Source: a virus
Length of the DNA stretch: 64,000 bases
IMG/VR virus record: IMGVR_UViG_3300027969_003844
Coordinates: 32,001 to 96,000 of that record
Reading direction: 5' to 3' (one strand)
A program made the position numbers and the translations under genes. This document shows positions 24,607 through 45,756 of this stretch, in pieces; within the stretch, counting starts at the first letter, position 1, and the number at the start of each line of letters is the position of its first letter. The notes under the pieces are model-generated. The model searched no databases. It saw only the letters and a program-made list of their open reading frames with translations, and was not told the origin of the DNA.

Positions 24607-26067
24607 CTAAAATATTGAAATCTGATGCAGGTCTTGAAATTTTCTAGCATTTGCCCAGGTGTTGACCAAGGGCTCGCCCTTGATATTTAAACTGGTATTC
24701 ATTAATACTGGACACCCACTTGCATCATACCATCTCTCTAGCAATTGTCTGAATACAGGGTTATCAAGACCATTGACTGTCTGAACACGGCTACTGTTAT
24801 CAACATGGCACACTCCCGGTAATATATCTGGTACCTTGCATTGAGCAACAAACTGCATGTAAGGACTAGATACAATTGGCATATCAAAATAATCAGCGGC
24901 ATGTTCTTCTAAGATAGCAGGCGCAAACGGTCTAAATTGTTCGCGCTTTTTAATAGTATTCATTCTTGGCTTGGCTTCTTTGCCTCTAGGATCACATAAT
25001 AAACTACGATTGCCTAGTGCCCGTGGCCCAAACTCTGCACGACCATTTGCCACTGCCACCACTTCGCCTGCTAGAAGCTTTTTAACAATACCATCAATGT
25101 CTAATTCTCTATCAATGTTTGTACCCAGATATGGATGTTCCCATTTTAAATGTTGACCAGTATAAGCAGCCACGGCGCCAATTGCACTGCCAGCATCTCC
25201 GGGATTTGGCATTATCCATACATTATTGAATACCTTAGATTTTGCAATCCTACTGTTGGCAACACAATTAAGTGCAACACCGCCCATGAATACTAAATTT
25301 TCACTTGTGGTGTTCATACGCATGTTAATAACAGTTTCCATCAGGTAGTCTTCAACAATGCTTTGTACACATGCGGCAATGGTGAACTTATCAGCAGTCA
25401 CAGGAGGCTTCCACCACAAACAGCCCCTGTGCAAATTGTGTCTTAACTTAAACTTGGGTGCTGAAAATTCAATGAAGAATTCTTTTAATATTTCAGATTT
25501 TAGCAATTGATCAACATGTCCGTATGCTGCCATGCCCATAAGAATATATTCTTCCTCATTGGGTTTGAGTCCCAGGTACTGAGTAAATGCAGAATAAAAT
25601 AGGCCAATGCTGTCAGGATAACGCTTGCGCCATTTAGATTTTATCTTGTGGCCATGTCCTTCCCAAATGCTAACACTATCCCATTCTCCAATTGCATCAA
25701 CAACTAAGATCGCGGCGTTATCAAAGCCACTGGTATAATATCCTGCGGCTGCATGACTTTTATGGTGTTTACCATAATGCAAAGGTATGTTGTTAAGGCC
25801 AACACGTTTTAATTCTTCTTTGGCACTTTCGTAATACGGACGCTGACCAGCATAAAGATTACGTGTACTTTTTAGTAATGGGCTTTCGAACCAGACAATG
25901 TCAGTGGGAGTACCATAATCAAACATTTCCTGTACCATGTCATAATTTAAAACACGGTCATTTTTATTTCTGCTGTACCGCTCTGCATGTCCAGCCCATA
26001 CTATACGATTTCCGTTGATAAGAGCTAAACTGGCATCGTGATTTAATCCTGTTGCTCCTAGAATCAT
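24607..26067 (-). CDS. NodU/CmcH-family O-carbamoyltransferase
   Basis: HDAS, HHKSHAA, VVDAIGE, MGMAAYG, GGVALNC, GDAG, EFGPRALGNRS, KKREQFRPFAP, NTSLN. Confidence 0.95.
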   Translation of the reverse strand: MILGATGLNHDASLALINGNRIVWAGHAERYSRNKNDRVLNYDMVQEMFDYGTPTDIVWFESPLLKSTRNLYAGQRPYYESAKEELKRVGLNNIPLHYGKHHKSHAAAGYYTSGFDNAAILVVDAIGEWDSVSIWEGHGHKIKSKWRKRYPDSIGLFYSAFTQYLGLKPNEEEYILMGMAAYGHVDQLLKSEILKEFFIEFSAPKFKLRHNLHRGCLWWKPPVTADKFTIAACVQSIVEDYLMETVINMRMNTTSENLVFMGGVALNCVANSRIAKSKVFNNVWIMPNPGDAGSAIGAVAAYTGQHLKWEHPYLGTNIDRELDIDGIVKKLLAGEVVAVANGRAEFGPRALGNRSLLCDPRGKEAKPRMNTIKKREQFRPFAPAILEEHAADYFDMPIVSSPYMQFVAQCKVPDILPGVCHVDNSSRVQTVNGLDNPVFRQLLERWYDASGCPVLMNTSLNIKGEPLVNTWANARKFQDLHQISIF

Positions 26068-26068
26068 G

Positions 26069-28141
26069 TTAAACTCTTTTCCATTTGCTTATTGAAATGT
26101 CTGCTCCGCAATGGCATCGTAGGCTATTGCAAATAACAGGATTAGATAATGTATTCCAATTAAGCTGGTCAAAATCCTTGACTGTTCCAATTACACCACC
26201 CACATCACAATTGCCTCGTTTGATATGACCATTTTGATGAATGAACAGACTCTCTACACCAATGTTACAATTAAAATCGTAAAAGTTTGTTTGTCCTCTG
26301 TTAATTAATTCTTGTTCATTGTCAATGATTGCACGACTGCCATCACTGAATGTAGCAGTTGGGCTCCATGGTGGGAATGGACGATATATTGGATTAGTAA
26401 CAGAAATATTGTCAGGCGATGACCGTGTTTCGACTTGCTTAAAATTCTTGAAGAATTGATTTTGTTCTTCAGAATAATTAATTTTGGCCAACTTGGTTCT
26501 AGAACTACCGTATTGATCGTCGATATAAACTAGTTCAATTCTAGCAGTTGTAGTTTTCTTTGCTTGGTCGATAAACTCTAATGTTTCTTCCCAGTACAGT
26601 GGATCCATCATTATACGCAATGACACCATGGTTTGCATTGTGGCAATACGTATGCGATCTAAATAATCTTTGGCTGTGCCATTGGCAAATTCTTGTGCAG
26701 GATGAAAACTACATGCCGCATAGGTCAGATACTTAAAATTTTCTTTAATGAATCGAGGTGTTCTTGCCAGGTTAGTGGTAATGCCAACATTGCCACCCAA
26801 GCTATGTATCTTTTGAACCATTTGAGGGAAGAACGGGCTCATTGTTGGTTCCCCACCACTGAGTGAAAAATTAATGTACTTTCCATCCCAGTGCTCAAAC
26901 ATCTTATCCAAGAAAGGTTCAATTTGTTCCCAATTAAACAAATGATTCTTTCCATTATGCAAAGACGATGGACAATATCTACAAGAATAATTACAGATAT
27001 CGTTAAGAATCCAAGTTACTATCACACGCTGTTCATTTTTAACTCCAACAATTTTTTTCCCTTGTACTGGGATTGGAAACTTCCATTGTGGGATTCTTGC
27101 TCTGGGATTTTCAATGCTTGAGTACATTTGAATATCGTCAACAATTTCAACATCCTGAATACTTCTAAATTTATTTAAATTAATGGTAATGCCAGTCACT
27201 GGAGAATAGATTTTTTCAAGCTGAACATCAACCAATCGTCCAATGCCCATAAAACCATCTCTATTATCTGGGTTGCGCCACTGGTAATCTAAATGCTTGT
27301 CCTCATCAAGTTCTTTGAACTTTTTCCAGTCATTGGTCAATGTGTACGGATCATAGGAGTCGTGGATTAGATAGCATAGTATTTCATTAGACCAAGATTC
27401 TTGACGAGTAATAGAATTGTTATCAACTGCCACTCCATCCCCGTCGGCCACAACCCGGCTTAGATTTTTACCTTCTCCGTTGTAGCCCAGTACAAGATCA
27501 CCAAATCTTAAATGCGACATAAAACTGGCGGCATCTTCGTTGGTGATTTCAAAATCACGGCGTGGATTAAAACTAATTAATAAATTTGCTTCAGTTGACG
27601 ATGTTGTTTCAATTGTGGGCTTCTCATCCGACGCAGATGCTGCCAATGTTTCTGCAATGGTAATGGCATCATTTAGTTGATTAAATGTTGTGTGGAAGTC
27701 TTCGTTGAATGTAATACCTGGCCATTGTAATGCTTCTGGACTATCTGCAGGGATTCGTTGATACGCAGTATCCCACCATTTTTTAGATAACTTTTCTGCT
27801 ACTCTTCCTTGATACTCATCAAATTGTTTATACAAATAATCAATAGCAGCCTGGTCGTATTTTTTAAAAATTGTCAATGGCTTGTCATAGAAAAGATTAA
27901 TCTTACGAATGATGTTGGTCAGACGCTCTTCAAATGCCATGTCTTTGGTTAAAAGAGTACGAGTAAATTTAATACGTTTATCCCTGAAACTTTTTTCTCC
28001 AAATTTCATATCTTCCAGTAACTGGCACCATTTAGCAGACAGCTTGGTATTATACAATCTGTAATACAGATCATAACATTCCCAGTTTTCTGGATTTACC
28101 AATGTAATCCTAACATTTTTATTGTCAATAAACTTTCCCAT
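26069..28141 (-). CDS. radical SAM enzyme with C-terminal SPASM/twitch, fused to an unknown N-terminal domain
   Basis: CNYSCRYC, SGGEPT, TTN; C..G...GNC...CNSLRCHC; ATG 28141 after GAGG. Confidence 0.88.
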   Translation of the reverse strand: MGKFIDNKNVRITLVNPENWECYDLYYRLYNTKLSAKWCQLLEDMKFGEKSFRDKRIKFTRTLLTKDMAFEERLTNIIRKINLFYDKPLTIFKKYDQAAIDYLYKQFDEYQGRVAEKLSKKWWDTAYQRIPADSPEALQWPGITFNEDFHTTFNQLNDAITIAETLAASASDEKPTIETTSSTEANLLISFNPRRDFEITNEDAASFMSHLRFGDLVLGYNGEGKNLSRVVADGDGVAVDNNSITRQESWSNEILCYLIHDSYDPYTLTNDWKKFKELDEDKHLDYQWRNPDNRDGFMGIGRLVDVQLEKIYSPVTGITINLNKFRSIQDVEIVDDIQMYSSIENPRARIPQWKFPIPVQGKKIVGVKNEQRVIVTWILNDICNYSCRYCPSSLHNGKNHLFNWEQIEPFLDKMFEHWDGKYINFSLSGGEPTMSPFFPQMVQKIHSLGGNVGITTNLARTPRFIKENFKYLTYAACSFHPAQEFANGTAKDYLDRIRIATMQTMVSLRIMMDPLYWEETLEFIDQAKKTTTARIELVYIDDQYGSSRTKLAKINYSEEQNQFFKNFKQVETRSSPDNISVTNPIYRPFPPWSPTATFSDGSRAIIDNEQELINRGQTNFYDFNCNIGVESLFIHQNGHIKRGNCDVGGVIGTVKDFDQLNWNTLSNPVICNSLRCHCGADISISKWKRV

Positions 28142-28157
28142 TTTAGCCTCTAAAATT

Positions 28158-29390
28158 TTATATATCAAGTAATTTTGTGTAGTCTGTGCCATGCAGGCGA
28201 TCAAGACCCTGTAGGTAATCCAGTGTTTGTGGGTACAAGTGACTCCAGTCTTCCGAATTCATAAATGTAATTAATCCAGCAAGTCTTTGCATTTGTACGT
28301 TCTTGGGATAACTTGCAAAATATGTTTCTAGTTTTTCCGTTACACGTTTTTTCATTTCTATTGGCAATACCTTGACACAAAGATATTGTGGCCAATGCAA
28401 TGTACCTGGATAGAATATGCCACCAATATTACTTTTACGAACCTTGTCAAGATTTAGGTTTAATAACCATTCGGACATTTCTGGCAACCAATTTATATTC
28501 AATGCTTGAACAGTGCATAACACTTTGACAATGATATTGTCTGGAGTGTCATTGTATAATTTTAAATTACGTTCAACCACTTCCCACTTGGCCGGACGAC
28601 GAATGTAATCATTGACCCAATCGTAACCATCAATACTGAGCATTAGTTCTACTTGCTTAAAGCTTTTCCAAAGCTCAACAATTTCTGGATTGTGTATAGT
28701 ACAATTGGTATGGTAACGAAGTGTGATATTTTTAGCTAAATCACGTGCAACCAACTGTTCGATGATTGACTTGTGTTCTTTGATGTACAGTGGTTCGCCA
28801 CCACCAAAAATAATGTGTTGTATAGAGCTTGCATTTTCAAAGAAATCATCCCAAAATACTGGATCTTTATACCACTCAAACTGTTCGGCGGCATAGTTTT
28901 CAATTTTATATTTCCACTCATGTCTTGCGTCAGTTTCTAATGTTTCACTGAGTGTTTTTGCGTCCTTGACCCATTTGCTCGAGTCCTGTGGCCGACACAT
29001 TACACATTGTAGATTACATGTATTACCAAGTCGTAAATCTAGTGTAATCAAATCATGATCAACACGACCATTGCGGCGTGTACTATCAACTAGACCATCT
29101 AGGTACTCTGCATCCAAGTGCTTGTACCAGTATTGATTTTCGTTTTGCCTGTGACTTTTGATACCAGCAGATTCTTCTTTGTAACAAGTGGTACATGCAG
29201 GGAACTCACGTCCATTTAGCATTGCCAGTCTGGCTTCTGCAAAATGACTACTGTTCCAAATCTGTGACCAATTTGATTTATTTAGATTTAAGTTTGAGGC
29301 CTTGGCCACACAACATAACAATGCTGTACCATCATTATAAGTTGCCGCATGTATCCAAGGTAGAATACAAAAAGTTTTAGATTTATCCAT
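28158..29390 (-). CDS. radical SAM enzyme, N-terminal twitch/SPASM-like (CxxPW type)
   Basis: FCILPW..LCC..CTTC; LDLRLGNTCNLQCVMC; GGGEPL. Confidence 0.92.
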   Translation of the reverse strand: MDKSKTFCILPWIHAATYNDGTALLCCVAKASNLNLNKSNWSQIWNSSHFAEARLAMLNGREFPACTTCYKEESAGIKSHRQNENQYWYKHLDAEYLDGLVDSTRRNGRVDHDLITLDLRLGNTCNLQCVMCRPQDSSKWVKDAKTLSETLETDARHEWKYKIENYAAEQFEWYKDPVFWDDFFENASSIQHIIFGGGEPLYIKEHKSIIEQLVARDLAKNITLRYHTNCTIHNPEIVELWKSFKQVELMLSIDGYDWVNDYIRRPAKWEVVERNLKLYNDTPDNIIVKVLCTVQALNINWLPEMSEWLLNLNLDKVRKSNIGGIFYPGTLHWPQYLCVKVLPIEMKKRVTEKLETYFASYPKNVQMQRLAGLITFMNSEDWSHLYPQTLDYLQGLDRLHGTDYTKLLDI

Positions 29391-30681
29391 TGATCAATTC
29401 TGCTATTCTGCTATCAAGTACTGTGACATCTTGTTCCCTGCTTTTGTCCAGGCTTTTTGTATATGTGCGTAAACGTTGCAATTGTTCTTCCCAGTCATCG
29501 GCTCTTGGTTGTTGTAATAGACCAATTATACCATTAACACTATTACGGGTTAATTCATGTACATTCTTAGGCATCTGATTGTCTCGATAATCCATTAGTA
29601 ATTGACACGCTTTGGCTTTAAGATCGTCAGGTAATATGTTTACATTGAGATGATAAGGATGATAATTTATAAGCAGGTCAACAAAAATATCTTTATTGTG
29701 TTTTTTGTTGAGCTCGTCTACCCATAACAACGTTTCAACTAGATTAAAAACATTATAAACCTGCACCGTTGGAGTCACACCTAATTTGACATTTGATAGC
29801 TCTGCAATCTTCTCTACGTTTGCACTCAACTGACTCCACTTACTTGGCGCACGAATGTAATCATTTACAGCACCAATTCCGTCTAAGCTGGCATTAATAT
29901 TAATTTCATCAAATTGACTGATAATATCAAGAAACTTTTTATTAACGTTGGTACAGTTTGTATTAAAAAATAATAAAATATCTTTGCGACCTTGGTCAAT
30001 ACAAGATTGCATAAATTTAAAATTGTTGCCAATAAGTGTTGGCTCGCCTCCGGTCATATAGACTTTCTTTAATTCTGGAATTAATGCGATAATCTGGTCC
30101 CATAACACATCGCTTTCAAACCATTCCTGTTGATCCATGACTGATATAGGAAACTTTCCAAATGCTTTACGCCAAACTTGTCCGTATGCTGGGTCTGTTT
30201 CTGTAAGCTCTAAGTGTTCCTTGGCAATCTGACTAGAATTCCATGGGTTGCACATTCTACATTTGAGATTGCACAAGTTGCCTAATCGCAAATCCAAATA
30301 CACCAAATCAGAATTAACTACGCCACCGTGTATTTTTGCATAACGAACACGTTTGGCCAATTCTTCTTCGCCTAATCTCCAGGCCCATTCATTGTTTGCA
30401 TGTATTCTATTACTGTCTCGACCCGAATCTTCTTGAAGATAACAGACTTTACAACCTTCAATGTTATCACCATTGATCATTGCAGTACGAATATCACGCA
30501 TGTCTTGTCCGTTCCATGCATGTTCAATAAACTGATCCTGGATAGTAAAGAATTTACCATCCTCTTTTTTAAGTTTGTTGGCCGCGCCTTTCACCATGCA
30601 ACAATACCGTACAGTTGCATCTGTATTGACCATTAGGCTAACAAAAGGAATAGCGCAAAACGTTTTTGAAATTGGTTTCAT
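29383..30681 (-). CDS. radical SAM enzyme, N-terminal twitch/SPASM-like (CxxPF type)
   Basis: FCAIPF..YCC..CKVC; CNLKCRMC; TGGEPT. Confidence 0.92.
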   Translation of the reverse strand: MKPISKTFCAIPFVSLMVNTDATVRYCCMVKGAANKLKKEDGKFFTIQDQFIEHAWNGQDMRDIRTAMINGDNIEGCKVCYLQEDSGRDSNRIHANNEWAWRLGEEELAKRVRYAKIHGGVVNSDLVYLDLRLGNLCNLKCRMCNPWNSSQIAKEHLELTETDPAYGQVWRKAFGKFPISVMDQQEWFESDVLWDQIIALIPELKKVYMTGGEPTLIGNNFKFMQSCIDQGRKDILLFFNTNCTNVNKKFLDIISQFDEININASLDGIGAVNDYIRAPSKWSQLSANVEKIAELSNVKLGVTPTVQVYNVFNLVETLLWVDELNKKHNKDIFVDLLINYHPYHLNVNILPDDLKAKACQLLMDYRDNQMPKNVHELTRNSVNGIIGLLQQPRADDWEEQLQRLRTYTKSLDKSREQDVTVLDSRIAELING

Positions 30682-30753
30682 TAAACTAAGCTTTAAAGAT
30701 TTGTCTTTTACTTATCGACAAACTTTATTACGAGTTAGCCAGTAAGATGACAA

Positions 30754-32247
30754 TTATGATGTGCGCGAATCTTCAACAGCAATTTGGTCTTGCCATGTAT
30801 AATCAAGATTCTTGGTTACAATTACATTATTATCAAAATCAACAAGTTCAAGCTTGCAAACATCGTCGTACTCAAACAATTCACGCATGAAATTTTCAGG
30901 ATCCGGATCAGACCAATCATCGCGTACAATACGTGCCACTGGAATTTTTCCAATGCTGGTAAACTTACTGTCTGGATCAACGTTTCTTTCGCGTAACCAT
31001 GGGAACATTTTTCTGTTTAAATTGTCAATAAGTTGTGTTTGTAATGCATAACTGTGTTCATGCAAAAACGTAATATTGCATTCGCCACTTAGGTAGCGTA
31101 ACCCACTGATGTTCTCATCATGAATTTCTCCGTCTTTGTCATAATACGCTTCCAATGGAGTTTTGCCAAGTTGGCAATAGTGCAAGAGTACATCGCCAAA
31201 GAATTCATATTGTGTAAAATTATCAAAATCGCTTTCAACAAATTTATAACGCTTGACTGGCATAGCAGGCAAAAATACATGGGCATTCCAATACCCTTGT
31301 CCCAATGAGTTTTGTCTATTGCCTTCTATTTCATGACACAAGTTATTGAGCTGTCGAATTGCAAACATAATAGGTAATGGCGAATTGGTAAAGTATCTTG
31401 AAGGATTCCATACCTGCCCAATTAGTAATTCAAAATGATGATGGATCTCATTGAGAATTTGTTGATCTAGAGTGATAGAATCAAACACCTGTGTAATATT
31501 ATAATATGGACGAGTATCTTCATTGCTGCCATCAAAATACTCATTGATTTTACCAATGTACTTGTTTAACTCGTTACACAGGCCTGGAATGTTTCTGGCA
31601 ATTGAACTATCATCTCTATACGTCCAGTTCTGTAGCATAAAGTACTTTTCAAACTTGGCTTCGTCAACGCTTAGATAATCATTGTGACAACACCTGGCCC
31701 ACTTTTGTGCAATAAAAGAAGTATTAATTTTAAATCGTACTTTCTTTGTTGCGCCGGTATCAACTGCTCTAAAGGTCAACTGAAATTCATTGTATTTTGT
31801 ATTTTCGTATGCACTGCCAATGGCTTCGACAATTGCACCATCTGTGGTAATTTCCGTACTAAACAATCTAGTGCGTCGTACACGGTCAACATGTTCATAA
31901 TCTACCAACCAAAGAAAATTGTTGACATGACATTGAGATTCTAAATCATCAAAGAATTCTTGACTGTCGGCTATAAAGAAAGATTGATATATGCTGTTGC
32001 AGTATTTCCAAAATTCATCAAAGACCTGCCGTTCGTTGAAGTAATGAATTAAATTATCAACTTTGCCATCGGGATTTGCCAATGCTTCTTTAATAAAGTT
32101 AATTTCACTTTCAGCATCACATAGAAAAATTAAACGAGTGTTTGAATCTCGTTGTAGTGTTGCAAATGCTAATAGTCCAGGCAGAGACACACCATAAACA
32201 TAATAGTTCTCAACATAGGTTTCGGGATTTGTAAATTGTGTTTGCAT
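30754..32247 (-). CDS. hypothetical protein carrying the cluster's repeated unknown domain at its C-terminus
   Basis: QKW, QILNEIHHHF, LNNLCHEIE, FGDVLLHYCQLGK. Confidence 0.75.
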   Translation of the reverse strand: MQTQFTNPETYVENYYVYGVSLPGLLAFATLQRDSNTRLIFLCDAESEINFIKEALANPDGKVDNLIHYFNERQVFDEFWKYCNSIYQSFFIADSQEFFDDLESQCHVNNFLWLVDYEHVDRVRRTRLFSTEITTDGAIVEAIGSAYENTKYNEFQLTFRAVDTGATKKVRFKINTSFIAQKWARCCHNDYLSVDEAKFEKYFMLQNWTYRDDSSIARNIPGLCNELNKYIGKINEYFDGSNEDTRPYYNITQVFDSITLDQQILNEIHHHFELLIGQVWNPSRYFTNSPLPIMFAIRQLNNLCHEIEGNRQNSLGQGYWNAHVFLPAMPVKRYKFVESDFDNFTQYEFFGDVLLHYCQLGKTPLEAYYDKDGEIHDENISGLRYLSGECNITFLHEHSYALQTQLIDNLNRKMFPWLRERNVDPDSKFTSIGKIPVARIVRDDWSDPDPENFMRELFEYDDVCKLELVDFDNNVIVTKNLDYTWQDQIAVEDSRTS

Positions 32248-32248
32248 G

Positions 32249-32350
32249 TTAGTAAATGAAAGGATCCTGTTTTTTCAACTCTTTCAGACGCCTTTTGTAT
32301 CTGCGCTCGGCCTTGATTCTTTCAATGATGTTTTTAATAAAATTCCACAT
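32249..32350 (-). CDS. 33-aa basic peptide ending DPFIY
   Basis: MWNFIKNIIERIKAERRYKRRLKELKKQDPFIY; AGGA RBS and CTAAATA motif upstream. Confidence 0.65.
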   Translation of the reverse strand: MWNFIKNIIERIKAERRYKRRLKELKKQDPFIY

Positions 32351-32360
32351 TGTATATTTC

Positions 32361-33251: not shown

Positions 33252-33253
33252 AA

Positions 33254-33991
33254 TTACATTATTGCCTTTAAACTATCTAACACAATTTGATTAAAAGGAT
33301 CACGGGCGCCACCATGGCTAATCATGTGAATTCTAGGAGTATTGCTATTGTTCCATACACTGTGCAAGTTTCCAATATCTACCAAGCAGGCATTGCCTTC
33401 ATTCTTAAAAGGAACATAACCCTTGCCTTCCATTTTGAAATTACAGCCTTCTGGATTGTTCAATGCAACATTGATTGGTAGTAGAAAATGTTCGTTACGA
33501 TCCTTGTGCGGTTGAATATACCCTTGTGGGTCTAACCACATATAACGTAGTCTATGATATCTATGGTTAGGAAATATGTCACGAAAGTATCGTGTGGTTT
33601 CGGGACAACGTTCTGTTATCTCGCCACACCAATGGTAATTGATATCGTTGATTGTTTTACCCTTGTTGTCATCGTATGCTTCCCAGTGACCAGTTCTGTC
33701 CCAAGCTTCACCGTGTAAGCAAATACTTTTCCAACCGCGATTGGCATATTCGGGGTTTTCATCTGGATGTGTTCTGTGCATTTGAAATAGGTCTTGCATG
33801 GCAAATGCTTCGCGAAGCATGTCTGCGAAGGGAGCACCAGGAAGAATTAGTGGCAAGTAAGGCCAGCCACTTTTCATTATGATCCAATCAACTAGTTCAT
33901 GTTCATGCTCAAACTTTGGCAATTGAACAGTTTTAAAATCCATGGTCCATGGACTATCATTGAAAAATTCTACAATTGCTTTTGGTATCAT
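33254..33991 (-). CDS. 2OG-Fe(II) dioxygenase, Asp/Asn beta-hydroxylase (LpxO-like)
   Basis: RLRYMWLDPQGYIQPHKD...HSVWNNSNTPRIH (HxD...H...R). Confidence 0.85.
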   Translation of the reverse strand: MIPKAIVEFFNDSPWTMDFKTVQLPKFEHEHELVDWIIMKSGWPYLPLILPGAPFADMLREAFAMQDLFQMHRTHPDENPEYANRGWKSICLHGEAWDRTGHWEAYDDNKGKTINDINYHWCGEITERCPETTRYFRDIFPNHRYHRLRYMWLDPQGYIQPHKDRNEHFLLPINVALNNPEGCNFKMEGKGYVPFKNEGNACLVDIGNLHSVWNNSNTPRIHMISHGGARDPFNQIVLDSLKAIM

Positions 33992-37561: not shown

Positions 37562-38907
37562 TATTGGCCTGTAATGAATGGTTTCATGTCTATATATTCA
37601 GGAAAGACCTCAAAGAAATCTTCTTTTCTATTTTTGTCAAGCCACAACTCGCGATTCCATCCACCTCGTATCCAATCGTCTGTTCTAGCAGGGACTTTTA
37701 ATAGATCTATTGCACTTCGATACCCACTTGCGGCACCGTCAAGAGATCTATTCCATTGTATATCAGACTCAGCATCTGACGTGACACGTTTAAAAGTTTC
37801 TAACCAGGCAATTTGCTCGTTGTACAGTGCAGTCAGATTGGCCTTGTGATTGTCGGGTAAGTTAGAAATACACCAGTGTTCTGGACCAAATAATAAGTTA
37901 ATAATAATATCACCAGGTTGAATATAACTAAGATTGACCCATTCCTTATGGAACTCTGCAATGTTATATGCTGTCATCATGCTTAAAGTTGCACCAATGA
38001 CAAATTTAACATGTGGCACTTCGGCTATCATTCGTTTTCTATTTTCAATGACCTGTTGCCATGACAAATTTTTACGTGCATATTCGCCTCGACCATAGCT
38101 GCCATCTAGGCTAGCAGAAACTGTTACTCTGCTAAACTTTTTCCAGTATTCAATTACATCAAACTTGGCATGAGTTAACTTGCTGAAATTTGTATTATAA
38201 AAAATATCAATATCTGTGTTTCCTAGGTCCAAGAAGTAATCTAAGATCTCATAATGCTGTGGCATGATTAGAGGCTCGCCGCCTGCAAAATAAATTCGAT
38301 GACAACTTCTCAAATTCTGTTTTAAACTTTCAACAGGCACGCCGGCCTTTCTAAATCTAGTTAAATTGTCATTGACTATAATTCCAGCATCAAGCATTGC
38401 TTGTTCTTCAGGAAACCAAGTCGAGCTATATTCTGGACCACAAGATCTGCATCTTAAATTGCAGGTGTTATCAAATCTTACATCTAGATAATTTATCTCA
38501 GGTTCGGCAACTGTATAATCTTCATTGACAGAGTTGCGAATATTATCATCAACTTTCCAAGTATTCATCCATCCCATCATTGCTTGACGCATACTATGAG
38601 TATTAACTGCTTCGCCTTTCCAGCAGTAGTTACATTGCGAATTTTTTACACCGTTCAATAAGTCTTTGCGTAGTTCTTTAAAAGACTCGCTGTTGTATGC
38701 ATTGACAATGCTTTCGTTTGTTGTACCTTCAATCCTGGACAATGATCTTCTAGTGGCTGATTTATGCACACAACATGCCGCTAAACTACCATCTGTGTGA
38801 ATGTAGTAAGAGTTAAATGGTGCTGGACAAAATGCACCATTGTTCTTGATCTTGTCCCATTCTGCATCTGTAAATTTTAATTTTTTAGTCATTGTCGTTG
38901 GTCTCAT
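37561..38907 (-). CDS. radical SAM enzyme (CxxPF type)
   Basis: FCPAPF..ACC..CNYCW; CNLRCRSC; AGGEPL. Confidence 0.92.
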   Translation of the reverse strand: MRPTTMTKKLKFTDAEWDKIKNNGAFCPAPFNSYYIHTDGSLAACCVHKSATRRSLSRIEGTTNESIVNAYNSESFKELRKDLLNGVKNSQCNYCWKGEAVNTHSMRQAMMGWMNTWKVDDNIRNSVNEDYTVAEPEINYLDVRFDNTCNLRCRSCGPEYSSTWFPEEQAMLDAGIIVNDNLTRFRKAGVPVESLKQNLRSCHRIYFAGGEPLIMPQHYEILDYFLDLGNTDIDIFYNTNFSKLTHAKFDVIEYWKKFSRVTVSASLDGSYGRGEYARKNLSWQQVIENRKRMIAEVPHVKFVIGATLSMMTAYNIAEFHKEWVNLSYIQPGDIIINLLFGPEHWCISNLPDNHKANLTALYNEQIAWLETFKRVTSDAESDIQWNRSLDGAASGYRSAIDLLKVPARTDDWIRGGWNRELWLDKNRKEDFFEVFPEYIDMKPFITGQ

Positions 38908-40114
38908 AACGTGGCAACAGTCCTCTGATATAGTCTAATATCTCTGGTGCAACAAAGTGTCTAGTTTTTTGTTCTCGTGACAAGTCAACCAAATAAAATT
39001 TATTATAAATTGTTATTAGTTCGTTGTTGCTTGGCAAACGGCTGTTCATATGATTAATCAGTCCCTTGATCACTTCCTTGTCAAGAGCACTTTTATTCCA
39101 CTTGTCTTCAATGAGGTCTTTGGCACCGTCGGGCAATGCCCATAGAGCCATGTGTGCCGGGCTATGAATCAAATTGTACCAAATTGCAAAGGTAGGAGTA
39201 TTGGTTTGTATCCATTCAACAAATTTAGGCAAGTCCCAGGCATTGATCCAACCAATGGTGTGACTAATAGAAATATTTGTGTTGTCTAACTCTCCATTGG
39301 CCTTCATTGCATTGTACTTGATTAGGTTTTCTTGTACTTCATCCCATTTACCAGGATAACGAAGATAATCATAGGTTCGACCAAGACCGTCAATGCTTAG
39401 GCCTAATCCAACTGATTTAAAATTGTCGTTTAGGAATTTAACACGCTCTCCAGAAAAGATTGTGGCATTTGAACTTAATGAAATATTAATTTCCTTACTA
39501 CGGCCACTGGCCACAAACTCATCCCATATATCATTCCATTGCTGAATATAAAATGGTTCGCCACCTACGATTTCTAAGTTTTGTACATGTTGCATCCACT
39601 CATGTCTATTTTTCCAAAGTAATCCATTCTTGTCACCGCTTTGACTAAATTTCATTTCGTAACCAGTGTTGCCGTAAATTTTCTTGTGTTCGGCTTGCCA
39701 TAGATTACTGTGACTTGGTGAACAACTACGACACTTTAGATTACAAGCATTGTTGATAATCATTTGATATTCATATGGCAGGCCCGGCTCAGCATCAAAG
39801 TCAACTATTGACTCATAGGTGTTATCTACATTTCTGGTATAAATCTGACGCTTGCTTTTGTGGCCATTGTTTTCGTCAATGATGCATGTTTCGCATGCCA
39901 GTGGCTTTTTGCCATCACGGAAATCCTGGCGTAACTTCTTCATGTAGTTACTGGAAAATATTTCCGTTACTGTATTAGTTTGAACATGCATGAACTCGCC
40001 ATTGTCATCCTTAATGTAGTCTTTGTAAAGACAGCAGGGACGAACTTTACCGTCAGGATCGTTACTAAATCCCGTCCAGGGCAGGCTACAAAGCCATTTT
40101 TTAGATTGAGTCAT
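38885..40114 (-). CDS. radical SAM enzyme (CxxPW type)
   Basis: LCSLPW..PCC..CETC; CNLKCRSC; VGGEPF. Confidence 0.92.
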   Translation of the reverse strand: MTQSKKWLCSLPWTGFSNDPDGKVRPCCLYKDYIKDDNGEFMHVQTNTVTEIFSSNYMKKLRQDFRDGKKPLACETCIIDENNGHKSKRQIYTRNVDNTYESIVDFDAEPGLPYEYQMIINNACNLKCRSCSPSHSNLWQAEHKKIYGNTGYEMKFSQSGDKNGLLWKNRHEWMQHVQNLEIVGGEPFYIQQWNDIWDEFVASGRSKEINISLSSNATIFSGERVKFLNDNFKSVGLGLSIDGLGRTYDYLRYPGKWDEVQENLIKYNAMKANGELDNTNISISHTIGWINAWDLPKFVEWIQTNTPTFAIWYNLIHSPAHMALWALPDGAKDLIEDKWNKSALDKEVIKGLINHMNSRLPSNNELITIYNKFYLVDLSREQKTRHFVAPEILDYIRGLLPRYETNDND

Positions 40115-41456
40115 ACCAGTTTATAAACCTTTGATCCAGTGATTCACGGAAATTCTTATTTCGTCTTTTGTCATATTGTGCCACGTATGATTTTAAATCT
40201 TGCAGGGCATCTTCTTCTCTTACATGCTGTTCCCATTTAACATTTGTTTCTGACATGTTAATAATTAGCCGTTCAACGTGGGCAATTTCTGTGTCGTGAC
40301 ATAAGCTTTTGTTTTCATTTAGCCATGCAGTAAATTCATTGACCAATTGCATTCTCAACTCAAGTGGAATAAGTTGAACACGCATAAATGCTGGTGAATG
40401 AACAAAGTTACAATTAAGCTCAACTCTTAACTGACCGTATTTAATCTTAAGGTCTTTGATCATATTTAGATAATCAATCATTGACCATACGCCAAGATTA
40501 TTAATGCTTGTGGTAAAGTTTAATCTATTAATAACATAGCTTGGACTTTCAAGAACTGTGATTACATTCTTCATCCATACATCGCCGTCAAACCCATCTC
40601 GAATGTATTCAGTTTGTAGCAATGAACTTTCAATACTAGTATGCAACACTGTTCTAAAATTGCTACCTACTGCATCAAGCAAACGCTGTAGCACATCTTC
40701 TTTGCAAACAAGATTGGTGTTAATAGAAAGGTCCTTGTTGAATTCGCCTTCTTTTAATCTATCCAGGAATCGCCAAAAGTTTGGACTCATTGTCGGCTCT
40801 CCGCCAGTGACTCGCAGCCACTTTAAGTCTTTTTCTAGCGTTGGCAACCAGTTGAAAAATGCTTCTACGTATGGATTTTCTCCCTGATCAATCATGTCGT
40901 CATCATTTGATGTTATGTAACGTCGATCAGTGATTAGTCCTTCATATGGTCCGTGATTCTTGATATCATTGGCCCATTTGGTGCTAAAAGCTGGACCACA
41001 GTATGCACATGCCAAATTGCAAATTCTATCAAACGCAATCTCTAGCATATAAGGATTGGTTGTCAATGGTTGGCCGCCAGTGGCCCATTGATGCAATTGC
41101 TTGCCTGGTACCGCCTGTGTTTTAATATAGCGATCACTAAGGCCGCCATCAGCTTCAATACTCCAGCAATAATTACAGCCACTGGGCTTTTCGCCGTCGA
41201 GCATGGCCTGACGTTCTCTCATTTTTTGCGGAGTGTTTTGTAGACTCGACGGATCGTTAGGATCTAATTCAATTTTATGAAATGGATTGTGATGGCAACT
41301 GGCTGTTGCACCTTGATACAACCAAATTGTACCTTCAAACCATTTAGCCCCACAAAAACTAGGGCTAATCTTGTCCATATGCTCTTCTTTAAAGATTTTA
41401 AATCGAGCAGTTTCTCCTGTTTGATGATTTGATAAGTCTGCCATATTAAAGTTCAA
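40101..41456 (-). CDS. radical SAM enzyme (CxAKW/SCHH type)
   Basis: FCGAKW..SCHH..CNYCW; CNLACAYC; TGGEPT. Confidence 0.92.
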   Translation of the reverse strand: MNFNMADLSNHQTGETARFKIFKEEHMDKISPSFCGAKWFEGTIWLYQGATASCHHNPFHKIELDPNDPSSLQNTPQKMRERQAMLDGEKPSGCNYCWSIEADGGLSDRYIKTQAVPGKQLHQWATGGQPLTTNPYMLEIAFDRICNLACAYCGPAFSTKWANDIKNHGPYEGLITDRRYITSNDDDMIDQGENPYVEAFFNWLPTLEKDLKWLRVTGGEPTMSPNFWRFLDRLKEGEFNKDLSINTNLVCKEDVLQRLLDAVGSNFRTVLHTSIESSLLQTEYIRDGFDGDVWMKNVITVLESPSYVINRLNFTTSINNLGVWSMIDYLNMIKDLKIKYGQLRVELNCNFVHSPAFMRVQLIPLELRMQLVNEFTAWLNENKSLCHDTEIAHVERLIINMSETNVKWEQHVREEDALQDLKSYVAQYDKRRNKNFRESLDQRFINWYDSI

Positions 41457-42840
41457 TCCCGTTGTACCAATCTGCTAGTCCCGGAAATGCCTCAGTGAAA
41501 TTCTTACCACGACGTTGATCATATTGCTGATAGAAACTCTTGAAATCCTTTTCAAGTTTTTCTCTTTCATATGCACCAGTGTGTGGAGTTTTAACAACAT
41601 CGAGATAATCAATAACTCGTTGTGTTTGATTAATTTCCATTTGATGTAATTTTATATCATCTCTATCTTTGTTGTTGTCAAGCCATAGTTGTAACCTGTC
41701 CTTGCGTACCTGACGCATTTCATCTGGTAACACTGTTAAACTTTGAAAACTAGGGAATCGTAAAAAGTTTAAAGTAAACACGCCAAAGTCTCTTCCGTAT
41801 TGTTTTTTAAATTCTACAACCCAATCTAAAAATTCAGGAAGACTTTCTAAGCAAAGTAAATTAATTGTACACATGATATGCAATGCTCTGAAACGTCCAC
41901 TGCTGGCAAGCTTATGCATATTCATTTTCCACTGCTCGTAATCAAGTCCATCCCGGATGTACTCAGCTTGTAAGCCAATGGATTCATTGCTGGTATAGAT
42001 TTGCAAATCATCAATGTACTGAGCTCGGTCAATTAGTCTATCAATTAATTCGTCTTTGCCGCCAAGGTTGCTATTAACTGCCAACCGCATATTGGGATTA
42101 CGAGTATTTTTAGGATCTGCAAACCAGTCCAATAAACGCCAGGTATGCGGACTCATCAATGGCTCGCCACCAGTGATACGAAGTTCGTACAGTGTACGAT
42201 GTAAATCACTTTCCCACCATTTAAAGAATGCTTCAATGTAAGGATTGCTTGGGTCATGGTCATATACACCAGCTGACTCATGCAAGTGATCAAAGTGTCC
42301 TCGACCATCTGTGTATAATTTTGTGTAAGGACCAAACTTCTTTAAATCATTTACCCAAGTTGTACTAAATGCTGGATTGCAATAAGAACATGCAAATTGA
42401 CATGTACGATCAAAAGCAATTTCTAATGTACGCAAGTCAACATCATTGTTATAGTCACCCTCCCATGCTTCTTTTAAAAGTTCTTCAGTGTAGATTTCAC
42501 TTTTATAAACTCGATCACTGATGTTGTCACGACCAATGTCTTCAACTTTCCAGCAGTACTCACATCCTGACGGACGCTCGCCATCTTGCATTTGTTTTCT
42601 CTCATTTTTCTTATGAGCTGTATTATGAATAGCCTTAGGATTGAATTTGATCTCTTTAAGATCTGCTTGGTGAGGCAATGGGTGATGACAGCTAGTGGTT
42701 TGGCCGCTGCCTAGCCAGATAGTAGAATTATACCACTTGGCCAGACATAAACTTTTACTATGACTATCTAGTAATTTTTTAACTCCATGGTCTGACGCTT
42801 GAATTTCTCTAATTGATAATGGTTGATTTTGTGTTGTCAT
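41446..42840 (-). CDS. radical SAM enzyme (CxAKW/SCHH type)
   Basis: LCLAKW..SCHH..CEYCW; CQFACSYC; TGGEPL. Confidence 0.92.
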   Translation of the reverse strand: MTTQNQPLSIREIQASDHGVKKLLDSHSKSLCLAKWYNSTIWLGSGQTTSCHHPLPHQADLKEIKFNPKAIHNTAHKKNERKQMQDGERPSGCEYCWKVEDIGRDNISDRVYKSEIYTEELLKEAWEGDYNNDVDLRTLEIAFDRTCQFACSYCNPAFSTTWVNDLKKFGPYTKLYTDGRGHFDHLHESAGVYDHDPSNPYIEAFFKWWESDLHRTLYELRITGGEPLMSPHTWRLLDWFADPKNTRNPNMRLAVNSNLGGKDELIDRLIDRAQYIDDLQIYTSNESIGLQAEYIRDGLDYEQWKMNMHKLASSGRFRALHIMCTINLLCLESLPEFLDWVVEFKKQYGRDFGVFTLNFLRFPSFQSLTVLPDEMRQVRKDRLQLWLDNNKDRDDIKLHQMEINQTQRVIDYLDVVKTPHTGAYEREKLEKDFKSFYQQYDQRRGKNFTEAFPGLADWYNGIEL

Positions 42841-44432
42841 TATTGTTTTCCTGAAATATATTTAGAACTTTGTTCACTTAAAATGTATAACTCTTCTAAC
42901 TCTGGAAATGTTTTTCTAAAGTCTGTGCCGCGTCGCTGATCGTGTTGCGTTACAAATGCAAAGAAATCTGCTCGCGCTAATTGTAGTTTATCTGTTGATA
43001 AAGGTTGTATTGCCCAATCGTACAAACGTTGTACTTTGTCAATTTCAAAGTCTTTAAATCCTTTGTATGGATTTTCTGAAGTTTCAATGTTTTCTTTCAT
43101 GAACTTGATTGACTCAAGTAACACATCAAAGTAATGTGACGGCAGTAATTTTAAACTTAGCCAAACAGGATCGTTTAGCATTGGAACATCAAACCATACC
43201 AATTGGCGAGTAGTATTAAATTCTTGACGCAAACGCAAGATATTTTTTACATATTCCATCCAACCAGGAATACTGAGTGCATTAAAAGTAACAATTAAAT
43301 TCAAGCTATGCTTTTTGCCCACTTGCAAATACGTTGATATGTTTTTATGAAGCATTTCAAAGTCTAAGCCAAACCTGCCGTATTCAGCCTGAGGTCCCCA
43401 AGAGTCTAAACTGCAATATAGCATAAAGTGATCAATTGCATTTTTTGTTTCTAGCTCGTTTAACGAAGTTAAAAATTTATCCCACTGATTGCCAGGTGGG
43501 CAACAATTCGACGTTATGCTAAGATGTAAGTCATCTCCCTTGGGATTTGCCGCAACATAATCAAATACCTTAAAGGTATTTTTATCCATCAGTGGCTCGC
43601 CACCAGTCATACGGAATGTTTGTAATGTTGGATAAATTGTTGGGAACCATTCCCAGAATGCTAGCAGATAAGGATTGTCTGGTCCATTGTTTGGAATCAT
43701 GTTTTCATTTTTCATCCAAACTGTGTCGTTATGCTTGCGGCCATTGCTTAATAGATAAGGACCGTATTTGTCAATTTCTTTATGCCATTCAGTGCTTAGA
43801 TGCGGACTACAATAAGAACATTTGAGATTGCAGGCCTGATTGAAATTTACTTCAACATATTTTGGCGTTGGATCTCCGTTGTACCCATCTTTTACTACTT
43901 CATTGAGTATACCAGGGCGCCAAACATCTTTACTACGATATGCACGATCACTGAGCATTTCACCGCTGTCTTCAATTTCCCAACAAAAATTACACTCGTC
44001 TGGTCTTACACCATTGAGCATTTTCTTGCGCTGTTCTTTTTTAAATTTGGTGTTATGAATAGCACCAGAGTCTGCTTGAATTTCTTCTAATGGAATCTTG
44101 TGTGCTGGAGGATGATAACAACTATGAGTCTTTCCAGTGGGAATGTGAATGCTTACATTGTACCATTTGGCAAGGCACATGCTGGGGCTAATCTCATTGA
44201 GAATCTTGAATACTTTCTTTGTATCTTCAAGGTAAACACTCTTGGCAACACCATTTGTAGTAATAGTGCCATCACCTTTTACTTGTTGCAGGTCACCGCG
44301 AAATTCTGCTTTTTCGTCGTCAGACATATAAGCATACAACTTAGGTTCAACCAACTTTGCAATTCGTTGCTTGGCTAGGTCTTCGTTGCTGTTGCCTAGT
44401 TGTTTTGTTTTTAATTTGTCAAAAATATTCAT
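42840..44432 (-). CDS. radical SAM enzyme (CxAKW/SCYH type)
   Basis: MCLAKW..SCYH..CNFCW; CNLKCSYC; TGGEPL. Confidence 0.92.
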   Translation of the reverse strand: MNIFDKLKTKQLGNSNEDLAKQRIAKLVEPKLYAYMSDDEKAEFRGDLQQVKGDGTITTNGVAKSVYLEDTKKVFKILNEISPSMCLAKWYNVSIHIPTGKTHSCYHPPAHKIPLEEIQADSGAIHNTKFKKEQRKKMLNGVRPDECNFCWEIEDSGEMLSDRAYRSKDVWRPGILNEVVKDGYNGDPTPKYVEVNFNQACNLKCSYCSPHLSTEWHKEIDKYGPYLLSNGRKHNDTVWMKNENMIPNNGPDNPYLLAFWEWFPTIYPTLQTFRMTGGEPLMDKNTFKVFDYVAANPKGDDLHLSITSNCCPPGNQWDKFLTSLNELETKNAIDHFMLYCSLDSWGPQAEYGRFGLDFEMLHKNISTYLQVGKKHSLNLIVTFNALSIPGWMEYVKNILRLRQEFNTTRQLVWFDVPMLNDPVWLSLKLLPSHYFDVLLESIKFMKENIETSENPYKGFKDFEIDKVQRLYDWAIQPLSTDKLQLARADFFAFVTQHDQRRGTDFRKTFPELEELYILSEQSSKYISGKQ

Positions 44433-44490
44433 TCGCGTTGGTTACCGTGCTAAAATTATAAAGGTACTTATCGAGTTAAATTTGAAAAGT

Positions 44491-45756
44491 TTACTCAGAT
44501 AAGTTTCTATTATACTCGAGTATGGTTTCCATGTCGCGTACTAATTTTGGAAGATTTTCCCTCCACGAAGTTTTTCTAACAGTGTCTTTTTTATCAAGTT
44601 GCCTCATCTGCATTTCAAGTTGAGGAACTATCACCCATTTATTATGATTAGGATGATTTTTAAGTGGGGCTAAAAATTCCTTAAAGGCTCTTCTTCTCTC
44701 TGCAATAGTAAAATGGTCAAAGAAGGGATTGGTAAAATTTTCACTTAAATCTTCTACTTCACGTATTGCTTCCTCTCGCATTGCAGGGGTTAGCACATCA
44801 GTTGAAAGACCTATTGGATAAATCATTGGACCAAAATTAATACGACATCCATTGTTACTGGTCATTCCATCTATCCAGTTTGAAATCTTTCCTATCATTC
44901 TGTAGTTTCCTAGTCCAACTGTTACTGTAAATTGCAATTGAATATGAGGACCTTTACGTTTTAATAATGTTTGTACATTTGATGCAAATTCCTTTGCATC
45001 AAGTCCGTAACGAAGTTGTTCTCCCCATTTGTCAAATCCATCAACACTGACTGACAGCACAATTGGACCGTTTATCTTATTCCACATATCTATTAGATCG
45101 TAGTGTTTATAAGTCAAATGACTGAAGTTGGTATTGTAAAATAATTCAATGCGTTGTTGGCTATCAATGAACATTTGTAAAAGTTCATAATGATGTTCTG
45201 CTATGGTTGGTTCACCACCTGCAAAGTAAATTTTTTCAATATCTCTATGAAACTCTTTTATTTCATTTAAAACTTTATCACCATCAACATTAATAATTGG
45301 GCTGTCAAGTTTTGTAACTTTAATGCGTTTATCTTCTACTGCATGAGCAGAGCTGTACTTTTCACCACAACCAATACAAGCAAAATTGCATTTGTTAGTA
45401 AATCTGTAGTCTAAATATAATTGTTTAAATTCTGCATGTCCAGATGGCTCAGGTTCTAGCAAAGATATAAATTTTTTCCAACGATTATTTTGATTTTGTC
45501 GCAGTGAGGTTCTGCCAGATGTTTCGAACCTGGTACATGCCGCGCACTCTTTTGGCAAGGAATCAGCAGTAAGCATCTGCTGTCTAATTTCATTGTATTT
45601 TGGACTATGAAAGATCTCCTTTAAGGTATTGTCTTTCAAATTACCCATTGGGGTAGGCGCAGTAAGGCAACAAAGATTTACACTGCTATCTGGATCAATT
45701 TCTGTGTGCATCCATGGTAGAACGCAAAATGCTTTTGGTAGATTATTATAATCCAT
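44491..45756 (-). CDS. radical SAM enzyme (CxxPW type)
   Basis: FCVLPW..LCC..CAAC; CNFACIGC; AGGEPT; ATG 45756 after AAGGA. Confidence 0.92.
   Translation of the reverse strand: MDYNNLPKAFCVLPWMHTEIDPDSSVNLCCLTAPTPMGNLKDNTLKEIFHSPKYNEIRQQMLTADSLPKECAACTRFETSGRTSLRQNQNNRWKKFISLLEPEPSGHAEFKQLYLDYRFTNKCNFACIGCGEKYSSAHAVEDKRIKVTKLDSPIINVDGDKVLNEIKEFHRDIEKIYFAGGEPTIAEHHYELLQMFIDSQQRIELFYNTNFSHLTYKHYDLIDMWNKINGPIVLSVSVDGFDKWGEQLRYGLDAKEFASNVQTLLKRKGPHIQLQFTVTVGLGNYRMIGKISNWIDGMTSNNGCRINFGPMIYPIGLSTDVLTPAMREEAIREVEDLSENFTNPFFDHFTIAERRRAFKEFLAPLKNHPNHNKWVIVPQLEMQMRQLDKKDTVRKTSWRENLPKLVRDMETILEYNRNLSE

Follow-up and report, generated by a model that had tools for sequence, protein, structure and literature searches.

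What could a virus make with ten radical S-adenosylmethionine (rSAM) genes packed into some 21 kb of DNA? The question is raised by a stretch of 64,000 nucleotides, positions 32,001 to 96,000 of the IMG/VR virus record IMGVR_UViG_3300027969_003844, which we call the window and to whose positions our coordinates refer. Large minus-strand open reading frames (ORFs), abutting or overlapping, fill 24607-45786 of it (~21 kb, the island), and the ORF map agrees here with an earlier note on this DNA, which had described such a run of co-oriented genes. Our analysis indicates a tailoring island carried by a phage, which centres on an array of ten genes of the rSAM family NF033640 and joins two sets of partner genes that we call modules A and B. 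As to its function, we favour, with a probability of roughly 45%, a cytoplasmic multi-step radical tailoring pathway that acts on a hydroxyl-rich, sugar-bearing acceptor. The DNA comes from a giant freshwater phage that has not been cultured: PHROG matches to tail-fibre, Lon-like protease, DNA ligase and nuclease families give its phage origin, and near-identical DNA occurs in freshwater metagenomes of four studies, one of them perhaps the sample from which the record was drawn. Since the whole record is 105 kb at a CheckV completeness of 32%, the source genome should be roughly 300 kb. Megablast of 15 kb against isolated phages gave no match.

To which kind of rSAM enzyme do these genes belong? 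Twelve ORFs of the window are concerned.

26069..28204, minus strand: 711-aa fusion of a His-less A3 domain and a C-terminal generic rSAM (Pfam, motif, A3 profile)
28158..29390, minus strand: N_Twi_rSAM paralog, second gene of a conserved pair (NF033640, 369.6 bits)
29383..30681, minus strand: N_Twi_rSAM paralog, first gene of the conserved pair (NF033640, 359.7 bits)
36305..37561, minus strand: N_Twi_rSAM paralog, in a subgroup with 40101, 41446 and 42840 by BLAST and tree (NF033640, 258.4 bits)
37561..38907, minus strand: N_Twi_rSAM paralog (NF033640, 320.4 bits)
38885..40114, minus strand: N_Twi_rSAM paralog (NF033640, 274.4 bits)
40101..41456, minus strand: N_Twi_rSAM paralog (NF033640, 257.6 bits)
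41446..42840, minus strand: N_Twi_rSAM paralog, carbamoyltransferase-module type (NF033640, 311.6 bits)
42840..44432, minus strand: N_Twi_rSAM paralog with an 80-aa N-terminal extension (NF033640, 318.1 bits)
44491..45786, minus strand: N_Twi_rSAM paralog, the island's first gene (NF033640, 272.9 bits; SPASM PF13186 at residues 21-85)
47842..49131, minus strand: tenth N_Twi_rSAM paralog, 2 kb upstream of the island (NF033640, 284.8 bits)
62240..63172, minus strand: third-class rSAM with no N-terminal twitch domain (PF04055)

The motifs CxxxCxxC and GGEP occur together in ten island ORFs (26069, 28158, 29383, 36305, 37561, 38885, 40101, 41446, 42840 and 44491) and in 47842, and 62240 has CxxxCxxC without GGEP; the count of ten rSAM genes plus two, given in the earlier note, was thus correct. 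The Pfam Radical_SAM model detects all twelve, some under its gathering score. The NCBIfam model NF033640 (N_Twi_rSAM, for twitch domain-containing radical SAM protein; model length 398, curated cut-off 170 bits) is passed by nine island genes and by 47842 with 257.6-369.6 bits, over its full length from positions 1-3 to 385-398, while proteins 26069 and 62240 fall short of the cut-off. The ten paralogs share an N-terminal four-cysteine domain ahead of the CxxxCxxC core. Their alignment has exactly seven all-cysteine columns, three from CxxxCxxC and four N-terminal with the spacing C-x18-C-x37-52-C-x2-C, and no conserved cysteine after the rSAM core. In five of them Pfam SPASM matches ahead of the Radical_SAM core, at about residues 8-96.

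The earlier note had brought in SPASM/twitch rSAMs to explain these proteins. SPASM and twitch domains are C-terminal extensions of the rSAM core, the twitch type binding one auxiliary cluster (PMC9012708), whereas in all ten paralogs the domain is N-terminal, so that they are not classical enzymes of this kind but a permuted family with the twitch domain in front. The four N-terminal cysteines would be enough for one fully cysteine-ligated auxiliary [4Fe-4S] cluster. In the prototype twitch rSAM, the butirosin 2-deoxy-scyllo-inosamine dehydrogenase BtrN, the auxiliary cluster has four cysteine ligands and the reaction is a two-electron oxidation of a sugar-like alcohol, while the cluster of MoaA has three cysteine ligands and an open Fe site that binds substrate (PMC9012708). 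Because the domain is N-terminal and holds four invariant cysteines, we take it for a permuted, BtrN-like (fully ligated) variant of the twitch domain: the four cysteines fit BtrN, but its domain comes after the core and not before it. In a PDB sequence search the nearest solved relative of the N_Twi rSAMs was SkfB (E 1e-7), and BtrN was absent from the matches. Literature searches on NF033640 and N-terminal twitch rSAMs found no study, reaction or structure of the family, and a search combining jumbo phage, rSAM and carbamoyltransferase found no study of it; nor did we find a characterised product for such a locus, as the earlier note had supposed.

Pairwise identities among the N_Twi paralogs are 20-36%, and BLAST separates them into two groups. 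In the tree, 28158 and 29383 each fall within a well-supported orthologue clade, and the group of 36305, 40101, 41446 and 42840 takes in viral and bacterial sequences. Such identities, together with the orthologue clades, point to old, specialised copies and not to a recent burst of duplication. Orthologues of 28158 (34-74% identity) were found on 128 IMG/VR stretches and in 31 GTDB genomes, and those of 42840 (36-46% identity) in viral loci L037 and L047-53 and in the bacterial locus L101/L115. The 128 relatives came from an alignment query of 28158 orthologues; a single-protein scan of viral contigs had returned none.

How constant is the company that these genes keep? We compared 80 viral loci of the 128 IMG/VR relatives with the 31 GTDB genome loci, which are mostly metagenome-assembled genomes (MAGs) of Bdellovibrionota, several of the loci lying on contigs 0.8-0.9 Mb long. 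Genes of the 29383 and 28158 types, whose stop and start overlap by 8 nt in the island, are adjacent in 57 of the 80 viral and 19 of the 31 genome loci. After the pair, 21-26 viral loci have genes for the A3 domain, an AspH-like hydroxylase and a protein with a GT-A fold and a methyltransferase fold. The co-occurrence of rSAM and tailoring genes, one of the checks that had been suggested, is therefore seen across loci. The second such check, purifying selection, had a similar outcome: the closest relative, L001, is collinear across the part of the island that it covers (23765-38907), and in every gene the non-synonymous divergence (pN) is far below the synonymous (pS), with dN/dS of 0.04-0.19 where synonymous sites are unsaturated. 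The island genes are thus under strong purifying selection.

NF033640 itself is a catalogue entry; in the window it is represented by ten genes with conserved partners, and elsewhere too it comes in multiple copies. Copy numbers are 4-19 in each of five genomes and 1-11 in 31 of 151 sampled Bdellovibrionota genomes, and in one bacterial genome seven consecutive copies lie between ATP synthase and mfd. Arrays on Bdellovibrionota chromosomes imply that the system is not phage-specific. In the cultured Vibrio phage K566 (OZ196521.1, L126 4684-11453) four N_Twi-like rSAM genes with CNLxCRxC motifs stand in a row. That phage has a genome of 255 kb, with a PagP-like gene nearby, and one of the four rSAMs is annotated only as 'hypothetical protein'. 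Nishimura et al. 2017 (PMC5332604) reported 12 rSAM genes, along with an A-type Fe-S carrier, in a T4-like marine genome, TARA_ERS488813_N000010. The window resembles it, both being from large aquatic phages with 12 rSAM genes, and the window has two A-type carriers; the published count, however, comes without family assignment, module structure or function. With this genome and the 128 matches for one paralog, the expectation that similar arrays exist in related aquatic phages has been borne out.

The 711-aa protein and 62240 are two further rSAM classes that travel with the N_Twi family. In the 711-aa protein an A3 copy (residues 33-285) precedes the rSAM motif CNYSCRYC at residue 404, and the same type of fusion is seen in L001, L030 and L058-60; fusions of A3 with an rSAM were counted in six loci. 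About 41 viral loci, and bacterial islands as well, have stand-alone rSAMs of its class, and homologues of 62240 are found in 23 viral loci and, beside N_Twi genes, in Bdellovibrionota islands.

Module A consists of the rSAM pair 29383 and 28158, the A3 domain, an AspH-like hydroxylase and a GT-A plus methyltransferase protein. Apart from the rSAM genes, its members are these.

30754..32247, minus strand: 497-aa protein with an A3 domain at residues 155-444 (A3 profile, E 9e-23)
33254..34048, minus strand: AspH-like Fe(II)/2-oxoglutarate hydroxylase, 264 aa (PF05118)
33988..35373, minus strand: 461-aa GT-A plus class I methyltransferase protein (AlphaFold2 model, fold matches)
35377..36318, minus strand: 313-aa stand-alone A3 domain (alignment and model)

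The hydroxylase scores 46.7 bits against PF05118 (cut-off 22.6), and H181, D183 and H229, the HxD...H triad on which the earlier call of an Fe(II)/2-oxoglutarate hydroxylase had been based, are invariant across 11 homologues, as is R239. By family match and triad we assign it to the Asp/Asn beta-hydroxylase family. For the 461-aa protein the AlphaFold2 model (pLDDT 75) has a GT-A fold in its N-terminal half (residues 1-215), with matches to LH3, Mimivirus R699, ColGalT1 and BcsA at Z 9.4-11 over 145-175 aligned residues with a root-mean-square deviation (rmsd) of 2.8-3.8. Best among them is LH3 residues 296-520 (Z 11.0, 157 aligned, rmsd 3.6), and R699 reaches Z 10.2; these are middling values that show the fold only. 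In the C-terminal half the fold is that of class I methyltransferases (NNMT, Z 9.6; 6ulo, Z 10.3). D51 and H155-D156 are invariant in the homologue alignment, and tblastn of this protein against isolated phages gave no match.

The domain that had been noticed as repeated is indeed one family, A3, which a hidden Markov model finds in three window proteins, of 313 aa (E 7e-91), 497 aa (E 9e-23) and 711 aa (E 5e-29). The 313-aa model (pLDDT 80, pTM 0.81) is a cyclophilin-like barrel (cyclophilins at Z 9.4, rmsd 3.5, 147 aligned) with a helical insert that carries the invariant residues H112, H140 and E143. The 497-aa protein keeps their equivalents; the copy in the 711-aa protein is without the two histidines. 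A profile search of 1.84 billion representatives gave 1089 relatives at E<=1e-3, those sampled all being annotated 'hypothetical', and structure comparison added ten uncharacterised viral relatives, one of them in Agrobacterium phage Atu_ph07. Foldseek found no match to the A3 model in the PDB, and a search of the ESM Atlas yielded nothing usable for A3. None of Pfam, NCBIfam and PHROGs placed the 296-aa, 313-aa, 461-aa and 497-aa proteins in a family, nor the N-terminal portion of the 711-aa one.

Gene fusions tie module A together. The AspH gene adjoins the GT-A/methyltransferase gene in 21 viral loci, A3 and AspH are fused into one protein of 538 aa in L062, L063 and L067, and in a Bdellovibrio sp. 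MAG one ORF of 1062 aa (L085:11094-14282, plus strand) joins A3, AspH and GT-A/methyltransferase beside the rSAM pair. LH3, ColGalT1 and Mimivirus R699 offer a parallel, in that a 2-oxoglutarate hydroxylase adjoins or is fused with a GT-A domain and the folds agree at Z 10-11. On the other hand, the hydroxylase of the window belongs to the AspH family (PF05118) and not to the lysyl hydroxylases, the sequence identity is about 9%, and the window system adds a methyltransferase domain and the A3 domain.

Module B consists of a carbamoyltransferase, a mini-protein ending in DPFIY, an SGNH-like protein and rSAMs of the 41446 subgroup.

24607..26067, minus strand: NodU/CmcH-type O-carbamoyltransferase, 486 aa (PF02543, PF16861, PHROG 1601)
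32249..32350, minus strand: 33-aa basic mini-protein with a DPFIY end (conservation)
32361..33251, minus strand: 296-aa SGNH-like protein with a GDS block at residues 9-11 (motifs by eye)

The carbamoyltransferase, already called NodU/CmcH-type, matches PF02543 (Carbam_trans_N, E 2e-46, 159.2 bits against a cut-off of 24), PF16861 (Carbam_trans_C, E 5e-53, 179.5 bits against 27) and PHROG 1601 (E 8e-101). Against the NodU equivalog NF041651 it scores 140.8 bits, under the cut-off of 1000, and is thus a member of the family and not NodU itself; its closest solved relatives are NovN (E 2e-60), GdmN and TobZ. In the cultured Ralstonia jumbo phage RsoM2USA (MG752970.1, L125) the order is SGNH-like, N_Twi rSAM, SGNH-like, KQDPFIYK ORF, SGNH-like, carbamoyltransferase. 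There the rSAM, RsoM2USA_202, is 52% identical to 41446 over 95% of its length and lies two genes from a carbamoyltransferase 44% identical to that of the island; the annotated genes of the stretch are all labelled 'hypothetical protein', and the ORF with the KQDPFIYK end (~35 aa, ~11190-11297, plus strand, between RsoM2USA_201 and _200) is unannotated.

What is the mini-protein for? It ends in KKQDPFIY, is strongly basic with no hydrophobic stretch, and is 82% identical in L001 (pN 0.10, pS 0.94); the peptide seen earlier is real in the sense that ORFs of its type are conserved in at least 12 loci. It goes with the carbamoyltransferase rather than with the rSAMs: a motif scan finds it in all 11 viral loci that have this enzyme, at most 190 nt away in 9, and most loci with the rSAM pair alone lack it. 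Saxitoxin clusters keep together sxtI (an O-carbamoyltransferase), the small proteins sxtJ and sxtK, and sxtL (GDSL-type) (PMC2679770), and module B has the same combination of carbamoyltransferase, tiny partner and, putatively, GDS(L)-type protein. Bacterial DUF5989/SxtK proteins end in APFIYTLF as the phage peptides end in DPFIY, both beside a carbamoyltransferase, but DUF5989 has a membrane helix where the phage peptide has a basic one. The DUF5989 model (PF19451) did not match the phage peptide, nor anything in the whole record at E<=10, and SxtJ was not found. We read the mini-protein as a probable SxtK-like accessory of the carbamoyltransferase, by analogy of its ending and its neighbour, and as neither a proven family member nor the precursor of a ribosomally synthesised and post-translationally modified peptide (RiPP). 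As saxitoxin scaffold genes are absent, nothing suggests a toxin.

The SGNH-like protein is a weaker case. Its N-terminal FACGDSFTAGE and later GG and H blocks, recognised by eye, fit the earlier label, but the GDSL Pfam model gives no match at E<=5. A PDB profile search returned one irrelevant match and no SGNH structure, and a word-based homologue search three close relatives with no GDSL annotation. The three RsoM2USA paralogs beside the carbamoyltransferase align with it by hhalign at E 1.8e-4 and probability 48%. As neither a GDSL model nor a PDB sequence matches, SGNH-like is a motif-level call. A Chitin_synth_2 match (24.6 bits, cut-off 27) was rejected as a probable chance match.

How could these parts work together? 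In the pathway that we favour, each rSAM would abstract a hydrogen atom at a specific position of one shared, hydroxyl-rich acceptor, and the auxiliary cluster would take the second electron as in BtrN, so that two-electron oxidations, epimerisations or steps of the cross-link type would result. The 2-oxoglutarate hydroxylase would add a hydroxyl group to the acceptor, the GT-A/methyltransferase protein would add a sugar and methylate it, the carbamoyltransferase, aided by the mini-protein, would carbamoylate a hydroxyl, and the SGNH-like protein would trim or move an ester. The acceptor would be made in the host cytoplasm and may be a nucleotide-sugar or glycan destined for a virion protein, or a small glycoside. 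We favour a sugar-bearing acceptor because of the relatives of the carbamoyltransferase (NovN, GdmN and TobZ carbamoylate natural-product hydroxyls), the GT-A/methyltransferase protein, the SGNH-like proteins and the sugar genes that flank the core elsewhere: UDP-glucose/GDP-mannose dehydrogenase genes in 16 viral loci, and two GT2 genes ahead of the rSAM pair in the Bdellovibrionia genome L093. We also count for this pathway the membership of the rSAMs in NF033640 and their cysteine pattern, the two-electron oxidation by BtrN with its four cysteine ligands, the parallel with sxtI/J/K/L, the recurrent gene sets of modules A and B, the fusions, the separate module B of RsoM2USA, the Fe-S carriers, the purifying selection and the solubility of the enzymes. 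No membrane segment is predicted in any island protein, all being predicted soluble, and the island is thus not a classical exported-polysaccharide locus; of the earlier proposal of a multi-step tailoring pathway, the multi-gene tailoring locus in a phage stands, and the absence of membrane segments speaks against an exported host-envelope polysaccharide.

Several observations weigh against this pathway. NF033640 has no known reaction and its nearest solved relative is SkfB, so that the chemistry is argued by analogy. In some bacteria the rSAM pair or the seven-gene array sits among housekeeping genes with no sugar enzymes nearby, and the island itself holds no genes for nucleotide-sugar synthesis. 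With Z 9-11, the matches to GT-A and cyclophilin-like folds are middling and silent on the substrate, and the SGNH assignment is made from motifs. Finally, AspH relatives and an LH3/ColGalT1-like fold are compatible with protein substrates too.

This last point leads to a serious rival, though in our estimation an unlikely one, in which the target is a protein: a phage or Bdellovibrionota cellular protein, for example a collagen-like tail fibre, would be hydroxylated and then glycosylated or methylated in the manner of LH3/ColGalT1 and Mimivirus collagen, with the rSAMs epimerising or cross-linking it and A3 serving as a protein-binding module. Membership of the hydroxylase in the AspH family, the closeness of the GT-A domain to LH3 residues 296-520, ColGalT1 and Mimivirus R699, the solubility of all enzymes and the existence of bacterial arrays without sugar genes all accord with it. 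So does the behaviour of A3, a cyclophilin-like domain fused in turn to rSAM, hydroxylase and GT/methyltransferase like a shared recognition domain, and the phage has a 1125-aa fibre with G-X-Y repeats. However, no more than 2 other compared loci have collagen-like proteins close to the core, the known NodU/CmcH-type carbamoyltransferases act on hydroxyls of small molecules or sugars, the His/His/Glu set of A3 looks catalytic rather than merely binding, and the fold matches are, as said, middling. The fibre lies upstream of the window (L113:867-4244, minus strand; G000 17866-21243), with five G-X-Y runs (e.g. GPKGDTGATG), and is a conceivable substrate of the hydroxylase and glycosyltransferase.

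Could the substrate be a nucleotide or the phage DNA instead? Jumbo phages frequently modify their DNA, the secondary NCBIfam matches of the rSAM cores (viperin, MoaA, NrdG, QueE) all act on nucleotides and the enzymes are cytoplasmic and soluble, so one might imagine rSAMs and tailoring enzymes altering nucleotides or phage bases and thereby evading host nucleases. We think this quite unlikely: the 105-kb record, which is 32% complete, has no thymidylate-synthase-type hydroxymethylase (flavodoxin genes were likewise not found in it), the same modules are found at many sites in Bdellovibrionota chromosomes, and a four-cysteine auxiliary cluster is unlike the open site of MoaA. Of similarly low probability is a diffusible secondary metabolite, an aminoglycoside-like or nucleoside-like molecule directed at the host or at competitors. 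A twitch rSAM of the BtrN type, a carbamoyltransferase of the TobZ type, a glycosyltransferase and a methyltransferase do resemble the contents of an aminoglycoside cluster, but the island has no scaffold enzyme (cyclitol synthase, aminotransferase, nonribosomal peptide synthetase or polyketide synthase), exporter or resistance gene. Lastly, that the 33-aa peptide, small, conserved, with an invariant C-terminal tyrosine motif and inside an rSAM-rich island, is a RiPP precursor matured by the rSAMs, as PqqA and MftA are by SPASM rSAMs (many of which are RiPP maturases, PMC9012708), is highly improbable, given that it tracks the carbamoyltransferase even where RsoM2USA has a single rSAM, that precursor and maturase are not co-inherited, most rSAM-pair loci lacking the peptide, that bacterial DUF5989/SxtK proteins have the same PFIY ending, and that no RiPP recognition element-type domain was reported for the rSAMs in Pfam and NCBIfam scans.

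Returning to the tailoring pathway on a sugar-bearing acceptor, we can ask what would be new about it. NF033640 is already catalogued and rSAM counts for a marine T4-like genome are published (PMC5332604); new here are the dissection into two modules, the A3-AspH-GT/methyltransferase triple fusion, the size of the A3 family and the cultured phages that carry parts of the system. The NF033640 family is widespread, apparently virus-enriched and reversed in domain order, and much new enzyme chemistry comes from rSAM enzymes. We put forward tentatively, as a somewhat unlikely proposal, that the twitch-first rSAMs and their His/His/Glu A3 partner carry out undescribed radical chemistry which decorates surface proteins or fibres with oxidised, methylated and carbamoylated groups in large phages and Bdellovibrionota. 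If true, a new class of surface modification would have come to light on virions and predators, the work of up to a dozen specialised rSAMs. The conserved partners define a minimal system: the rSAM pair, A3 (~1,100 representatives), the hydroxylase, the GT/methyltransferase, and the carbamoyltransferase with its mini-protein. Since Ralstonia RsoM2USA, Vibrio K566 and Agrobacterium Atu_ph07 are cultured phages with parts of it, the question is directly testable, and the answer bears on how giant phages decorate virions or reprogram hosts and on the toolkit that they share with predatory bacteria.

Two further genes of the window, outside the island, concern Fe-S clusters.

719-1057, minus strand: HesB/IscA A-type Fe-S carrier (PF01521, 74.7 bits, cut-off 26.3)
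61522..61842, minus strand: HesB/IscA A-type Fe-S carrier, other copy (PF01521, 67.3 bits, cut-off 26.3)

These carriers are probably cluster suppliers for the twelve rSAM enzymes of the phage. With up to a dozen rSAM copies and their own Fe-S carriers, the family is clearly valuable to large phages.

When might the island be expressed? The earlier note had seen late-promoter-like TAA(A/G)TA hexamers at 30709, 32371, 44465 and 45777 and concluded that the genes are probably expressed late. The hexamers are there, but in the window TAA(A/G)TA is rarer than base composition predicts (38 seen, ~100 expected), and of the T4 late consensus TATAAATA the window has a single copy, which is not in the island; we therefore find no support for the late-promoter reading or for late expression, the argument for which was a motif of low information. 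A longer element behaves differently.

30709..30718, minus strand: 10-mer TCGATAAGTA, promoter-like, in the 72-nt gap ahead of the rSAM pair (exact repeat)
44465..44474, minus strand: second exact TCGATAAGTA, in a 58-nt gap (exact repeat)

Exact copies of TCGATAAGTA occur only at these two sites, which are the island's two real intergenic gaps, about 30 nt upstream of start codons, and at the 30709 position L001 has the partly conserved counterpart ACTAAGTAAAG. Judged by sequence and position, TCGATAAGTA may be a phage promoter element. Sigma-70-like sites are at shuffle level and terminator-like sites below it.

Among the neighbours, just past the downstream end of the island, is a gene for a 377-aa FG-GAP-repeat protein (22569-23702, minus strand; PF13517, E 3e-19), with a nuclease gene (23765-24580) in between. 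Between the island and the 47842 rSAM is a DUF3307 membrane protein (46309-46716, minus strand), the sole predicted membrane protein nearby. A calcineurin-like metallophosphoesterase (57835-58590, minus strand) is followed by a glycosyltransferase-like gene (56809-57819, minus strand), and two Lon-like ATP-dependent protease homologues, matching PHROG 4339 and PHROG 4871, are encoded at 17585-18847 of the window (minus strand) and at L113:5495-7708 (minus strand), respectively.

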